Made by a program: the position numbers | DNA from: a virus | Taxonomy: Duplodnaviria; Heunggongvirae; Uroviricota; Caudoviricetes | DNA: 28,518 bases | IMG/VR virus record: IMGVR_UViG_2529293076_000021 | Strand: one strand, 5' to 3' | Shown here: piece by piece, positions 12,001 to 18,000 of the stretch | Numbering within the stretch: the first letter of the stretch is position 1 | How the letters are laid out: each line of letters opens with the position of its first letter

Positions 12001-15000
12001 CTGAACCTGCGTGAAAACCTTCCCCTCCGCCATCCAGTAATCCCGGAATGCGGCAAGCTCAGCAGGTGTAAATTCCGGCTCAGGCAGAGCCATACCCCAC
12101 ACTGCTGCCCGTTGTCGAAAATCCGGCGACGGCTGCCAGACAGTAGTCATCGAAAATTTCCCGATCGGTTCGCTCAGGCCGTCCAGGTATTCAGGTTCGG
12201 CTGTCTGCAACGGCGCACCATTCGACTCACTGGTCGGAATACTCTCGCGCGCGTTATGTGTGGGGTTTAATTCTGTATCTGTATCTTTATCTGTATCTTT
12301 ATCTGTCGTGACTTGTCGTGACTTGTCGTGACAGATGCGTGACACGTCGTGACTCATCGTGACAATCAGCATTATGTTTCCGCAGCTTTTCCCGCTCCCG
12401 CTGCGCTCTCTTGCGCTCTGCCGGGGATTTTGCCGTTTGCGAAACGTTACCATTGTCCTCTTTCAGCACCTGACGTTTTTCCCATCCGGAAATAAGGTCA
12501 CCATCCAGAACCCGCCCCTGCATTGCATGCAAAATTGAATCAATTACGTCTTCCGTCACATCAAGCGCACTTGCTAAATCTTCCGTCGTGACATCAATGT
12601 GACCACGTAGTGACACGCCGTGACATGTCGTGACATTTCGTGACGCGCTCACCAGAAGATGGATATACACTGCCATCACTGTTGCGATTGGCTGTCCTGA
12701 TACCCTGGCAATCGTTCGCCACTTGGGGTCATTTGGCATGTCATGCCACAATCTGAGCCAGGCATTAGCCATACTCACCTCTTCTGATACCGAACTTTAC
12801 CCTCGAACATCCGGAAGAAATCCGGCATGAATATTGTTGGTCAATGCACGACAACAGCATTACCAGGCTGACCCCCACTGTTAGTCAGGGTGCCCCAGGC
12901 GATCGCCGCTGCGACAAAATCATCCACATCTTTCACCAGCCGATCCCTCCGTTCGACGATCTCACGGTAATATTCAGAGCTGTGACTGCGCATACGGGCC
13001 ACCAGCAGAGGCGGCATTGCCTTTTCGATCGCCGGTAACAGAGCCTGCATTTTTTCAACTGCATCAGGGGTGTCTTTCTCTATCCAGCGGAAAATTTTCT
13101 GGGTATTGCGAGCCAGGGCTTCCGGATGGCTGTCGTCGTACAGTTCAGGAAACGTCATACCCAACTCAAAATAAGCCTGGGTTATTCCAGCTGCCGGAAC
13201 TTTTTCGCCATCAGGACGCGCCCAGGCATTCATCGCCATGCGGATGTGTTCATGCTTGATTTTCATGAATCCCCCCTTGGTTAGAAGGCGGATTATGATC
13301 AGAATCGGGAATGACAACCGTCGGTATGTGTAACTCATATTTGAGCGCCCCGGCAGTGACTGCCTGAATTAGCAACGCCCATTTCCACGGAACGTCTTCC
13401 CCCCACATGCTGACTGTGGTTTTTGACGTTCCTAGAGCGGCGGCTGTTTTAACAACTCCGCCAAAATAGCCTAATACTTCTGATTTTTTCATGAGTCGCT
13501 CCATAAAACTGAACGCCAAAAGTTTAATAATCAAAACCAAAGAAAGTCAAGAAACAAAACCATCTGTGTTTTAAAATCAAAACATGAACAAGCAAACAAT
13601 ATCTGAACGCATAACCCAACGTATGCATGCGCTAAACTTGAAAGGCAAAGACCTTGTCAATGCCACTGGCGCATCAAAAGGCTCCGTAAGTCAATGGATG
13701 AACGGTGGAGGAGCGCCGTCCTCGCGTTACATAAGTTCACTGGCAAAGATATTGAAAGTAAACGAAAATTGGCTTCTTAATGGAGGAGAGTTAAATACAG
13801 GTGATTCGCTTGATCTATCTTTACCGCCGATAAAAACGGTTCCGCTACTATCACTTCAGCAGGCAGCAAGCTGGAGTGATTATATGAAAAATTCCTCAAT
13901 AACCTCTTGTGTGCAGCTTGTCGGAGAAATCCCGGCCAATACCTTTGCTGTTGTTCTAGAGAGTGACAGTATGTCGACATCTGGTGGTGGAGTTTCCATC
14001 CCAAATGGTTCAACAGTTTTTGTTGATCCCGATCGAATCGTACAACCAGGAAATATTGTCCTTGCCTTACCCAAAGGGACCACAACGCCTGTCATTCGCA
14101 AACTGGAGATAGAAGGGCCGGATATTCTTTTAGTCCCCACGAATCCTCGCTACCCTTCAATTATGCTGGATGATCTATCTTGCATATTGGGAGTATGCTT
14201 TAAAATTCAACAAGATATTTAACCAACCTCATCTATTTGATTAACTGTATGCCATCGTAGTGATGGCGTAACAGCTGCCTGCTTAAAATGTTTTGATAAA
14301 AAAACATTGACCTTAAATGTTCGTTTTTCTAAACTTCATTCATTCCCTCACCCCGCCCCACAGAATGCAGGGCAATACTTCGAGTTACCAGGCAGTGGTC
14401 AGGGGTTAAGTAGCCAGCCCGAGGCGTAAGAACATGACGGCAGGGTTCAACTTTAATAACTATGCAGCAGGTTTTTGTTCCGCTACCCCGGCGTTAAGGG
14501 GAAATGAGGTCAACATGGATACGCTCAATCTTGGCAACAACGAATCTCTGGTATGTGGCGTGTTCCCCAACCAGGACGGTACGTTCACCGCGATGACGTA
14601 TACCAAAAGCAAAACGTTTAAAACTGAAGCTGGCGCGCGTCGCTGGTTAGCCAGAAACACTGACTGATGAGGTTGACGATGGAATTTAAAGATTTACCTC
14701 CTTCAATCCAGGAGATTGCAGCACACACACTTCGTCATCGTCTGAACGAACTTGAATTGGAATCGGTAACGAAAAAAGACACTGATAATATGGCTCGTAA
14801 TGTGCGCGATGCGTTTACCGGATTGTATTTCTGTGCGTCTATAAATAAACACGACTCAGAGAGTGTGGCAAATAAAATTGCAGAAACGACAGCGCAAAAC
14901 ATCAATACGAAACCAACGGAAGAAGAAATTGATCAGTTTGCTCATGATGCTGGTTTAAAAAACAAGAAAGAAAAATCGCCATATGCGGGGAACATGTTTG

Positions 15001-18000
15001 TTTATGACAATCTCATCAGAATTCGTGGCGAAATTCCGGCGGAATACCTGGCAAGAGTCCATCAGGCATTGCTTAAAAATTTGGAAACAGAATTATTTGA
15101 TGGCAACACTAACGGTTTCTTCATGGTATCAGGCCTTGAGAAAGACTGGGATGCAGAAAAACGCTGGAATGTTGCTACATGGTTATTCAGTAACAGAGCC
15201 GCTGCACTGGAAGCTTCGGCATGTATTTGCGGCCTGTTCTTAACAGACCACAAATATAATCTGGATGTGTACAGTTATATTTACGCTGAACACGGTCCAC
15301 TCTGGATTGACTGGTAATTATAAGGAAACACCAGCAGGGCCGCGGCGACCAACAGAACGATTAAAATCAATAATGCCATTATAAAGGACATTATTTAATT
15401 TATCGTCGAATGCTGATTCTGTGAGCCTCAACTCTGAATGAGTTTTTAATAACCCTGATTGCCTGAGTTGATTTACCAGGCATTCAATCTGTTTTTCAAT
15501 AAGCGGATTTCTTTTTTTGTTTGGCATTTTATCCTCCATTGAGGTTCTGGGTTAAAAATGGAGACCAACACGCTGTCACGTGTGGTCGTGCGCCGGACAC
15601 GGATAAGAATCCGGTACTGACAGTTTACTGAAAGGATATTTCCCTGAAAAGTCAGTGCATAACGCGAAAGCGTACGGCGAAGCTCTTTCCCTTAGAAGGC
15701 TTGTCGTTAGATTTCTTCGAACGTGCGCTTCCGGTTGTGGCACTCCGCGAAATGGCGCGGCGGTAAGTATGGCGGGGTTATTCCTTCCCCATTGAGGACA
15801 CCGGGTTGTCAGGTTGACCATACGCTTAAGTGACAACCCCGCTGCAACGCCCTCTGTTATCAATTTTCTGGTGACGTTTGGCGGTATCAGTTTTACTCCG
15901 TGGCTGCTCTGCCGCCCTTTTTAAAGTGAATTTTGTGATGCGGTGAATGCGGCTAAGCGCACGCGGAACAGTTAAAACCAAAAACAGTGTTATGGGTGGA
16001 TTCTCTGTATCCGGCGTTAATTGTTAACTGGTTAACGTCACCTGGAGGCACCAGGCACCGCATCACAAAATTCATTGTTGAGGACGCGATAATGGAAACG
16101 TTATTACCAAACGTTAATACGTCTGAAGGTTGTTTTGATATTGGTGTTCTGCTCAGTAACCGGGAGTTTACTGAAGATGCCATTAACATGAGGAAATATG
16201 AGCCTTATCTGCTCAATGATAATTCCATACTTTCCCGAATTGCTCTTCTTGAACTTGGTATTTTCGGAGAACGTCAATGACTTCAGCATTTGCACTGATG
16301 ATGACGGTTTTTCTTATAACGGGTGAATCACAGAATGTGATTACCGGAATTTATGCCAGTAAAGAATCCTGCCTCCAGGCAAGAGACGAGCAAAAAATTT
16401 CTGGTGAATGCCTCCCGGTAAAAAAAGTATCGCTGTACCTGAATAACGAAACACCGGCTGGATAACCCTCCAGCCATATTAACACCATACCAACGGATTA
16501 AAAATGCCAGCAATGGCAGGGATTTGTTCACCCTTAAATCTGTAATGAGGTTTATCAATGAGCACTGATAAAGAAGAATTTGCGCTATATTGCGAAGCAA
16601 AAAATGACAAAGTCAGAAAACGTCTGGGAATTAAAGGTGGTTTTTACTGGACTACAGCAAAAAAATTATCTGTTGCCATCTCCCGCTGCATTACCGCAAT
16701 GGATGACAACGATTATGATGAAGACGACTTTAAAAAACCCGTTCGCGTCCATTTACCCGTTGTGAATGACCTTCCACCTGAAGGCGTGTTTGATACCGAA
16801 TTCTGCAACCGATACGAAAAAGGCGGGGAAGATGGCATTACAATGGTATTTATCGCGCCCTCTCCCTCCGTGCAGGAGAAACCAGCCAGTACTGACAATA
16901 CCAACGTCAACGGCGAAGACATGACGGAGATTGAGGAGAATATGCTCCTGCCGGTTTCTGGTCAGGAGCTGCCCATTCGCTGGCTTGCGCAACACGGCAG
17001 CGAAAAACCAGTAACGCACGTTGCACGGGAAGAACTTCAGGCATTACATATAGCACGGGCGGAAGAACTGCCGGCTGTTACTGCCCTGGCCATTTCTCAC
17101 AAAACAAAGCTGCTCGACCCGCTGGAGATTCGCGACCTTCACAAACTGGTACGCGACACTGACAAAGTTTTCCCTAATCCCGGTAATTCAGACCTGGGAC
17201 TGATAACTGCTTTTTTCGAGGCATACCTGGACGCTGACTACACTGATCGGGGTCTGCTGACAAAAGAGTGGATGAAAGGAAATCGTGTTTCGCGTATCAC
17301 CCGTACGGCTTCCGGTGCAAATGCCGGTGGCGGGAACAAAACCGATCGCAATCCGAATTTAGTACACACCTTCGATACGCTGGATGTGGAGATTGCAGCA
17401 GCCACACTTCCGATGGATTTTAATATTTATGAAATTCCGGGCAGCGTTTATCGTCGCGCAAAAGAAATCGTCCTGAAAAGAGAAAGTCCGTTCAAAGAAT
17501 GGTCCGCAGCACTTCGCGCAACCCCGGGTATTCTGGACTATTCCCGCGCCGCTATTTTTGCACTTATCCGGAGCGCTCACCCTGAGTTTTATCACTACCC
17601 GGGACGCCTTCAGGGGTATATCAACGCCTACTTAACGGAGACTGATCACGAGAACCCCAGCAAGGAAACTCTCACTGCTGCACGACATACACCGGAAAAA
17701 GATATCCTGGAAGAAGTTAACCGCGAACTGTCTGCTAAGCAGGAAACAGAAGAAGAAAATGATGAAGAAAAACCGCAACCATCTTGCGCAATGGCAGAAT
17801 GATAATCAGAAGAAATCTGGCAAAAGACCGTTTTACAGTACCAAAAACACAGGCGGGAACCAATCGTGTGATTCACCTTATTAAGCCCGCAATCGACGCT
17901 CTCCGGAGTCAGATGGCACTAACGAGACTGAGCAAAGAGCATATCATCGATGTTCACCTCAGAGAATTCGGCAGAACAGAGAAACAAAAATGTACCTTTG

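Follow-up and report, generated by a model that had tools for sequence, protein, structure and literature searches.

Polymorphic toxin-immunity loci combine a conserved N-terminal part with a variable C-terminal domain, and an adjacent small gene changes together with this domain; in BstA systems, a prophage-borne function is paired with self-immunity. Antisense control inside early operons is known from OOP and cII of phage lambda and from sas and sieB of P22 (reviewed in PMC7067206). The dicBF operon of Escherichia coli, which encodes a cell-division inhibitor, has been described (PMC5069750, PMC10448788), and in E. coli K-12 it starts at a DicA-repressed promoter upstream of ydfA (PMC10448788). 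Here we analyse a related locus in a virus of the Caudoviricetes (IMG/VR record IMGVR_UViG_2529293076_000021; the whole stretch of 28,518 nucleotides (nt) is called the window). Downstream of a cI-type repressor gene, the locus contains a ydfA homologue, a large gene for a protein of 212 amino acids (aa) and a convergent small gene for a protein of 69 aa. An original prediction, made from the sequence alone, had joined the first two into an operator-controlled two-gene module. The evidence favours a different pairing, that of the large gene with the small gene, and these two very probably form one exchangeable cassette, as judged from its boundaries in related prophages: an N-terminal protein module (N-module) on one side and a leader of about 90 nt with three hairpins on the other.

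A candidate cassette between ydfA and dicF

Homology to the Qin prophage of K-12 breaks after ydfA (14667) and returns at about 15585, so that the large and small genes fill the slot held by ydfB and ydfC in K-12. Both of these genes are absent between ydfA and dicF, and the proteins of the window have no similarity to K-12 YdfB or YdfC. The two cassette genes abut stop to stop (TAA at 15315-15317, TTA at 15318-15320), and in IMG/VR every locus with the small gene (68 of 68) has it adjacent to and convergent with the C-terminal domain (C-domain) of the large protein. Among 5426 complete E. coli genomes, the large gene was found in 600 (751 places) and the small gene in 597 (744 places). The pair is present in about one in nine of these genomes, mostly Shiga toxin (Stx)-producing E. 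coli (STEC) of the O157, O145, O121, O111 and O26 groups, and often in several prophages.

The N-module recurs in proteins of phrog_1363, phrog_9419, phrog_6937 and phrog_33007, in many short proteins and in Stx2 phage proteins, and is joined to at least four unrelated C-termini. Each of the cassette types A/A', B, C and D comes with a different family of small gene. Small proteins of type A (64-69 aa, SGLLK...RRGPAGV.L, MPNK-type) are partnered by the C-domain found in this window; type B (80 aa, CPxC...CPxH) is convergent with P0162 (179 aa), type C (63 aa) with P0181 (201 aa) in a ydfABC-X-dicB operon, and type D (64 aa, MSEQELKL...) with an N-module protein of 112-119 aa. Behind an identical N-module, a type A C-domain always occurs with a type A small gene and a type D C-terminus always with type D, with zero mixed cases. 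All four or five cassette types are arranged tail to tail with an overlap of 0-53 nt, and the N-module and hairpin 1 of the leader are the exact positions of the mosaic joints. The phage genome record mEp460_ev081 has the same layout, with repressor, ydfA, a 121-aa N-module gene, a convergent 66-aa gene and dicB. Judged from these comparisons, at least four unrelated pairs of C-terminal domain and small protein are swapped between the same two flanks. No earlier description of the cassette or of its RNA leader was found in the literature.

The pairing extends to loci with another large-protein N-terminus. An exhaustive HMMER search gave 35 hits among 1.84 billion cluster representatives, one of which (P0169) was rejected as a spurious low-complexity repeat protein. 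P0175 and P0179 have the C-domain alone in common with the large protein (28% identity). In prophages that carry a P2-type Int-C-Cox switch, their genes come immediately behind a Cox-type gene, and each is tail to tail with a small-protein homologue (44-52% identity, motif SGLLK...RRGxPAGVxL). P0175 also carries HTH_3 in the middle of the protein and matches CII-like and repressor PHROGs. Because P0175 and P0179 keep the C-domain and the small homologue without the N-module, the small-protein family tracks the C-domain and not the N-terminus. The pairing is kept in distant relatives (28-44% identity) with a different large-protein N-terminus and a P2-type switch. A third homologue search, with an alignment as query, gave no new relatives among the matches listed, and species-representative genomes scanned for the small protein gave no relatives.

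The shared leader of the small genes

The leader upstream of the small gene is conserved even where the sequence further upstream differs, and one leader stands ahead of all four unrelated small-gene types. In nine lineages, its fold consists of three hairpins and has z-scores of -2.7 to -4.2. No variation is seen in hairpin 1 (GCCGGAU...UCCGGC), while hairpin 2 keeps a fixed position with at least four different stems (CCACACG/CGUGUUGG, CCCAAC/GUUGGG, UUCCCGA/UCGGGAA and CUCCAC/GUGGAG). In hairpin 3, CUCCAU (15563-15558) pairs as an anti-Shine-Dalgarno sequence with AUGGAG (15539-15534) and covers the Shine-Dalgarno sequence GGAGGA; in one lineage CUCCA/UGGAG is changed to CUCCU/AGGAG. The MAFFT alignment A6 misregisters hairpin 2 in five sequences, and the counts were repeated on the model-fitted alignment A7. 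With leader model R1, 91% of the cells of A7 are paired compared to 31-46% with slid partners, and pairs changed on both sides number 8 compared to 2.8±1.1 in shuffles; A7 itself leans towards the structure and the leader sequences are related. Two invariant U-G pairs are valid on the small-gene strand only, and this strand specificity points to the mRNA of the small gene as the structured molecule. Searches of Rfam with the leader interval gave no match at the gathering score or at E<=1. The leader is present, unannotated, in at least 37 phage records, including phiP27 and O104:H4 Stx2 phages.

A -10-like hexamer lies 7 nt ahead of CCGGAU in unrelated contexts (TAAACT here, TATAAC in Salmonella, and TATAGG, TAAAAT or TAAGCT elsewhere), and the background probability of at least four matches of six is 0.039. 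Since the hexamer is found at a fixed offset in unrelated contexts, a promoter with a transcript starting at hairpin 1 is suggested. Another candidate promoter for the small gene, TTAACC-N18-TAAAAT (15555-15526), was rejected, its -10 overlapping the start codon.

Copies of the leader were also seen away from the small gene. In K-12 MG1655 (L002 2566-2633, minus strand), hairpins 1 and 2 and the TAAACT hexamer lie just downstream of ydfC without a small convergent gene; they may be a remnant or may belong to a transcript antisense to ydfC. In one locus (L088 2725-3396, plus strand), a second leader copy (63.8 bits) stands ahead of a proline-rich open reading frame (ORF) of about 40 aa and of a 155-aa protein (phrog_6315) with two apparent hydrophobic stretches, as read by eye. 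This second copy suggests that the leader can drive other cargo oriented against the early operon.

The two cassette proteins

Both cassette genes are under purifying selection, with ratios of nonsynonymous to synonymous substitutions (dN/dS) of 0.16-0.5 for the large gene and 0.03-0.28 for the small gene. The convergent 69-aa gene with its GGAGGA Shine-Dalgarno sequence (15537-15532 on the minus strand, 4 nt ahead of the ATG at 15527), noticed in the original prediction, is therefore a real gene, also annotated in RefSeq. Structure prediction, proposed beforehand as a check, was run as monomer models of the large and small proteins. The AlphaFold2 model of the large protein (mean confidence, pLDDT, 73) gives the C-domain a generic ferredoxin-like fold of the ferredoxin-like/ACT/ArgR-C type. 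The small protein is modelled as a helical hairpin (helices 8-24 and 37-58) with a disordered conserved basic tail, GRRGPAGVSL. The net charges of the two are opposite, -6.3 for the C-domain and +3.6 for the small protein, which supports the idea that they are partners.

With a grand average of hydropathy of -0.53 and a highest 19-residue hydropathy of 0.22, the small protein is hydrophilic and does not have the hydropathy of a hydrophobic membrane toxin of type I (hok/sok-like). Neither the large nor the small protein contains a hydrophobic segment of transmembrane strength. Searches of Pfam, NCBIfam and PADLOC gave no match for the 212-aa and 69-aa proteins, their PHROG matches are families of unknown function only, and profile searches of the PDB were empty. 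In PADLOC-DB 2.0, no defence family was matched by YdfA, the large or the small protein; the helix-turn-helix of the repressor alone matched, weakly, RmrA.

Frameshifts in the small gene recur (L009/L010, L065-L071, P0156). In Salmonella they lie in the region that codes for the GRRGPAG tail (L009/L010 5512-5895, minus strand), and in a group of E. coli prophages after codon 5. Such frameshifted genes beside intact large genes indicate that the small protein is dispensable to the lysogen while the operon is repressed. In L018 and L019, RefSeq flags the large gene as a 'pseudogene'; for L019 the flag was rejected, as the ORF is intact with a divergent N-module.

Gene starts, operators and operon context

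The ORFs of the original prediction, 14434-14667 (77 aa), 14667-15317 (216 aa) and 15318-15527 (69 aa, minus strand), are all present, as is the TGATG junction (14665-14669) by which the first two had been called coupled. The TGA stop of ydfA (14665-14667) overlaps the ATG at 14667-14669, and this junction is kept wherever ydfA precedes the large gene. The proposed starts fared less well. The DUF1391 match of the 77-aa ORF begins at residue 29, and the conserved sequence reaches upstream no further than the ribosome-binding region that serves the ATG at 14515. The start at 14434 was rejected, the 27-codon extension being absent, frameshifted or without an in-frame ATG in many leader variants. 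For the large gene, the ATG of TGATG (14667), which would give 216 aa, is conserved. However, RefSeq and the N-termini of all homologues begin with MEFKDL (14679, 212 aa), with GAGG 6 nt upstream, and this is most likely the start of the protein.

Profile searches had been named as a check in which clear homology to known early-left proteins would speak against the original prediction. They identified the first gene as a known early-left protein, YdfA (DUF1391), and left the 212-aa and 69-aa proteins without a named family. In Pfam, PHROG, NCBIfam and PADLOC, in agreement with the original prediction, the three proteins showed no relation to N, Rex or Kil.

As had been predicted, the genes directly follow cI and stand behind a promoter TTGACC-N17-TAAACT (pL) that is abutted by an operator (OL) matching the OR site; the half-sites of the two are identical. 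The cI-type repressor has 212 aa, with helix-turn-helix and S24 domains. The pattern TGTTTT-N6-AAAACA occurs with zero mismatches at exactly two sites in the window, OR and OL, and a chance match is ruled out for the palindrome next to pL. The promoter as a consensus match is at chance level, with 5 promoter-like sites in the scan compared to 4.7 expected. The K-12 promoter dicBp has the same position upstream of ydfA (TTGACC-N17-TAATCT), and the layout of a promoter directly downstream of the repressor gene and bearing an OR-type operator is shared. From the weaker site over the spacer and the -10 hexamer we infer a possible second operator, which would mirror the two-operator layout read in K-12 dicBp. 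The 5' untranslated region (UTR) of the operon (14336-14514) is about 100 nt longer than that of K-12 and is 93-98% identical in phages Tritos, vB_EcoS-689R5 and Evi.

The full repressor ORF is intact in the window and in strain TR01, whereas RefSeq (PGAP) has only its last 339 nt (L001 5685-6023) as 'LexA family protein'. As a member of the helix-turn-helix and S24 peptidase family, this repressor, unlike DicA, should be open to cleavage during the SOS response. About 7 nt ahead of the cI ATG there is a hexamer TAAAAT (13571-13576); the mRNA of cI may be leaderless, like that made from pRM for lambda cI, and its -10 would then be covered by the operator.

A chromosomal prophage found in E. 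coli O157:H7 and in STEC of the O121, O145, O111 and O26 groups matches the 1.4 kb around the locus at 100% identity. In RefSeq, one strand of the matching prophage encodes a Cro/CI regulator and a YdaT-family protein along with replication genes. The other strand carries a LexA-family repressor, a DUF1391 protein, two hypothetical proteins (one of them on the opposite strand), dicB and a DUF1482 protein, and past the DUF1482 gene it continues into a truncated recE, a truncated integrase and insertion sequence elements. Gene order is collinear with dicA-ydfABC-dicF-dicB-ydfD of K-12, and a sequence scan found no terminator-like sites between pL and DicF, including the positions after ydfA and after the large gene. 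Because the same strand runs on into DicF, dicB, the DUF1482/ydfD gene and recE, the unit is the head of a long early-left operon of an already described kind. The predicted order is OL/pL, ydfA, the 212-aa gene, a long UTR with DicF, dicB, ydfD and recE. By sequence comparison we regard it as nearly certain that the region is the promoter-proximal part of a cI-repressed dicBF-type early-left operon in a defective lambdoid prophage of STEC.

Table 1. Features of the cassette, the operon and the immunity region, with positions in the window
Feature	Position	Strand	Evidence and remarks
OR operator, perfect palindrome TGTTTTAAAATCAAAACA	13567-13584		Between cro and cI; last base is the A of the cI start codon
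cI-type repressor, 212 aa, HTH_3 + Peptidase_S24	13584-14222	+	Pfam S24 8.2e-13, HTH_3; phrog_4 transcriptional repressor; context, outside the cassette
OL operator, perfect palindrome TGTTTTGATAAAAAAACA	14289-14306		Abuts the -35 hexamer; D1/I1 repeats
pL (dicBp-equivalent) promoter TTGACC-N17-TAAACT	14307-14335	+	-35 at 14307-14312, -10 at 14330-14335; promoter scan
Possible second, imperfect operator TGTTCG-N6-TAAACT	14317-14334		Over spacer and -10; 4 of 12 half-site positions differ; inverted repeat I4 with OL
ydfA homologue (DUF1391), 50 aa	14515-14667	+	Pfam PF07151 1.2e-29, 102 bits (cutoff 27.3), residues 29-75 of the 77-aa ORF; RefSeq coding sequence
Large cassette gene, 212 aa, phrog_2151, 'Ybl81' in some sources	14679-15317	+	RefSeq coding sequence; phrog_2151 1.8e-147
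N-module, aa 1-56 (about 55 residues), MEFKDLP..IQ..AA..RNVRDAF.GLY	14679-14846	+	Two-helix hairpin, helices 8-24 and 32-55 (model); left flank
C-terminal alpha/beta domain, aa ~100-200, acidic	14976-15278	+	
Small cassette gene, 69 aa, phrog_4274	15318-15527	-	RefSeq coding sequence; phrog_4274 1.2e-51; ORF 15318-15539 gives 73 aa
Structured 5' leader of the small gene	15528-15617	-	Hairpin 1 at 15617-15590, hairpin 2 at 15587-15563, hairpin 3 over the Shine-Dalgarno sequence
Inferred small-gene promoter	15622-15650	-	-35 TTTTCA at 15650-15645, -10 TAAACT at 15627-15622; predicted start ~15615, at the base of hairpin 1
DicF small RNA	15866-15917	+	Rfam RF00039, 75 bits (gathering score 48); downstream on the operon strand
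dicB	16092-16280	+	Pfam DicB 2.8e-36; RefSeq
DUF1482/ydfD homologue	16277-16465	+	Pfam DUF1482 2.9e-15; RefSeq

Other elements of the prophage region

In the interval between DicF and dicB, a sub-threshold STnc100-like match was found (15929-16069, plus strand; 38.8 bits, gathering score 47), and a full STnc100 match of 104.7 bits lies at 2983-3155 (minus strand). The same prophage region contains a hok/sok type I toxin-antitoxin locus, with a sok antitoxin RNA (8472-8646, minus strand; 113 bits) beside a Hok/Gef-family gene, and three tRNA genes (3929-4178, minus strand). The gene in the position of cII (12841-13338, minus strand) belongs to the YdaT family (Pfam 'YdaT_toxin', 2.7e-09), as in immunity regions of the Rac/Qin type. 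In related prophages (L007, L009 and L019; e.g. L019 4189-4377), isrK and C4 antisense RNA elements of the P1/P7 c4 type lie a few kb past the cassette, beside Rha/Ash-family genes, and point to antirepressor control modules of the same early region.

Discussion

We propose the following working for this locus. In the lysogen, cI bound to OL would keep pL off, and the small gene alone would be transcribed from its own promoter just upstream of hairpin 1, its translation being throttled by the hairpin of CUCCAU with the Shine-Dalgarno region. Upon derepression, transcription from pL would cross the small gene in antisense, and polymerase collision together with sense/antisense RNA pairing would silence the small gene while the large protein is made. 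Opposite regulation of the two genes is suggested by their convergent arrangement, and we see even chances that they are reciprocally expressed. The basic small protein and the acidic C-domain would be cognate partners, since the small partner changes together with the C-terminal domain. Regarding their roles, polymorphic effector/immunity loci offer an analogy, from which we tentatively suggest that the C-domain is a variable effector made early and the small protein a neutraliser made by the lysogen, an assignment that is possible at best. Taken as a whole, the combination of operon, cassette and proposed working is the best explanation we have, with about equal prospects of being right or wrong.

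Several observations weigh against this explanation. The inferred small-gene promoter has 8 of 12 consensus positions and is missing in some contexts. Leader remnants without a small gene are found in K-12 and in an Stx2 phage, and the leader may have a role of its own, independent of the small gene. A frameshifted small gene lies beside an intact large gene in 7 of 68 IMG/VR loci and in Salmonella L009/L010. No toxin, antitoxin, immunity or defence family was matched by either cassette protein, and the predicted structures gave no specific fold match; the fold of the C-domain is commoner in regulatory and oligomerisation domains than in toxins. Literature searches by protein accessions and by 'Ybl81' returned nothing, and no paper names either protein. 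Moreover, co-inheritance of the two genes could be explained by mere adjacency between the recombination flanks.

This last point leads to the reading that the two are unrelated neighbours, a mosaic early-left protein and an independent moron with its own leader, which travel together between recombination sequences without a spacer. We consider this rather unlikely, although joints at the N-module and at hairpin 1 mean that everything in between is inherited as a block, N-module genes occur with a leader remnant and no small gene (Stx2 phage L003; the context of P0177), and the second leader copy of L088 has no N-module partner. The pairing, however, outlasts the saturation of synonymous sites (dS not computable or above 1.5 between lineages) and is kept in loci whose large protein is without the N-module flank; the tail-to-tail geometry is constant across four or five cassette types and the charges are complementary. 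The view of the original prediction, in which the 77-aa and 216-aa ORFs are a self-contained, coupled and operator-controlled pair in place of N, Rex or Kil, appears highly improbable. Its promoter, operator and TGATG overlap are real, and TGATG is conserved where ydfA precedes the large gene. In other prophages, however, ydfA is followed by ydfB/ydfC or other genes, and the large gene occurs without ydfA, behind ydfC (L017) or behind Cox-type or HTH_35 genes (Salmonella). With such variable neighbours, with no terminator-like site and with an operon that runs past DicF and dicB to recE, and given the unconserved 77-aa extension, a two-gene module of ydfA and the large gene did not stand.

The effector and neutraliser assignment has a close competitor in which the roles are reversed. 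The small protein would then be a superinfection-exclusion or abortive-infection effector made by the lysogen, and the C-domain an early anti-exclusion (self-immunity) factor, made at once on induction or infection so that the phage escapes its own block. By itself this is unlikely, but we rate it nearly as good as the assignment that we prefer. The position of the small gene, antisense to lytic genes, is a typical site of prophage accessory loci (PMC7067206), and a hairpin that sequesters the Shine-Dalgarno sequence throttles translation as for a harmful product. The second leader copy of L088 suggests that the leader serves lysogen-expressed cargo in general, the helix-turn-helix and C-domain of P0175 form an antitoxin-like build, loss of function of the small gene beside an intact large gene is tolerated, and diversifying cognate pairs fit an arms race among related phages. 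On the other hand, no small protein has a functional match in PADLOC or PHROG, the small proteins are soluble, of 63-80 aa and of unrelated folds, which is more like an inhibitor or immunity protein than an effector, and the large protein with its conserved N-terminus and variable C-terminus resembles effectors and not antidotes. A regulatory pair seems quite improbable to us. Here the large protein would regulate the early operon or the choice between lysis and lysogeny, the convergent transcript would act mainly as an antisense RNA on the 3' end of the large gene, like OOP on lambda cII, and the small protein would modulate the C-domain of the regulator. The antisense geometry with overlapping 3' end of OOP and cII (PMC7067206) and the shaping of dicBF transcripts by RNase III (PMC10448788) would agree with it, as would P0175, with its HTH_3, its CII-like and repressor PHROG matches and its place directly after Cox, and a ferredoxin-like/ACT/ArgR-C fold typical of regulatory domains. 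The large protein of the window, however, is without a recognisable DNA-binding domain, strong purifying selection on the small ORF as a protein indicates more than an antisense RNA, and four unrelated pairs fit poorly with a single conserved regulatory task.

As an operator-controlled early module, the locus belongs to a familiar and unremarkable class of operon. The novelty lies in the interval from ydfA to dicF, a swap site that is bounded by a conserved protein module and an undescribed, likewise conserved RNA leader and that holds alternative pairs of domain and small protein. The leader is a defined candidate for a cis-regulatory RNA that acts by sequestration of the Shine-Dalgarno sequence. 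If the pairs are cognate, as effector and neutraliser or as exclusion and escape, they would constitute a new class of phage module, convergent in arrangement and coupled to the switch, with a bearing on the coexistence and competition of the many lambdoid prophages of STEC, Stx phages included. More speculatively, and with a doubt that we wish to stress, temperate phages of the Enterobacteriaceae (lambdoid dicBF-type phages, Stx phages and hybrids with a P2-type switch) might carry a polymorphic early-operon cassette system. A shared N-module would be joined to alternative effector domains, each with a cognate small protein on the opposite strand behind a shared leader and promoter. The prophage switch would set which partner is made, and the pairs would diversify by flank exchange since they decide the competition of related phages, through exclusion and escape or through effector and immunity.

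With polymorphic toxin-immunity loci and type II toxin-antitoxin systems the cassette shares an N-module with a variable C-domain, a small-gene family that switches along, alternative pairs between the same flanks and opposite charges. It differs from both in lying inside a phage early operon. In contrast to polymorphic loci, domain searches gave no secretion or delivery domain and no known toxin domain for the cassette; in contrast to type II systems, the genes are convergent, stop to stop, and not co-directional and co-transcribed, and the proteins have no toxin or antitoxin domain in Pfam, NCBIfam or PADLOC, with an empty PDB profile search. By analogy with BstA, the prophage-borne function may be paired with a means of phage escape. 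Moron genes that lie antisense to lytic genes and are expressed in the lysogen, such as STMMW_20121 of ST64B, resemble the small gene in their opposite orientation, in the inferred promoter of its own and in the proximity to the immunity region. Compared to moron and BstA systems, the product in the window is a soluble protein of 69 aa without a known defence domain, and the leader is common to unrelated cargo genes.

Like OOP/cII of lambda and sas/sieB of P22, the locus would have, in a repressor-controlled operon, a short convergent transcript that meets an early gene at its 3' end or overlaps it there, and sense/antisense pairing would be expected as a mode of interference here as well. The transcript of the window, however, encodes a conserved 69-aa protein and has a 90-nt structured leader, and there is no sequence relationship. 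The dicBF operon of K-12 Qin shares with the window a repressor gene followed by a promoter with a TTGACC -35 and immunity-specific operators, ydfA as the first gene, a long structured UTR with DicF, then dicB, a ydfD homologue and a truncated recE, and, past the variable segment, the first two hairpins of the leader. In contrast to K-12, the repressor of the window is of the cI/LexA type with an S24 peptidase and not DicA, the operators are others, the 5' UTR is extended by its additional stretch, and ydfB-ydfC are replaced by the 212-aa gene and the convergent 69-aa gene.

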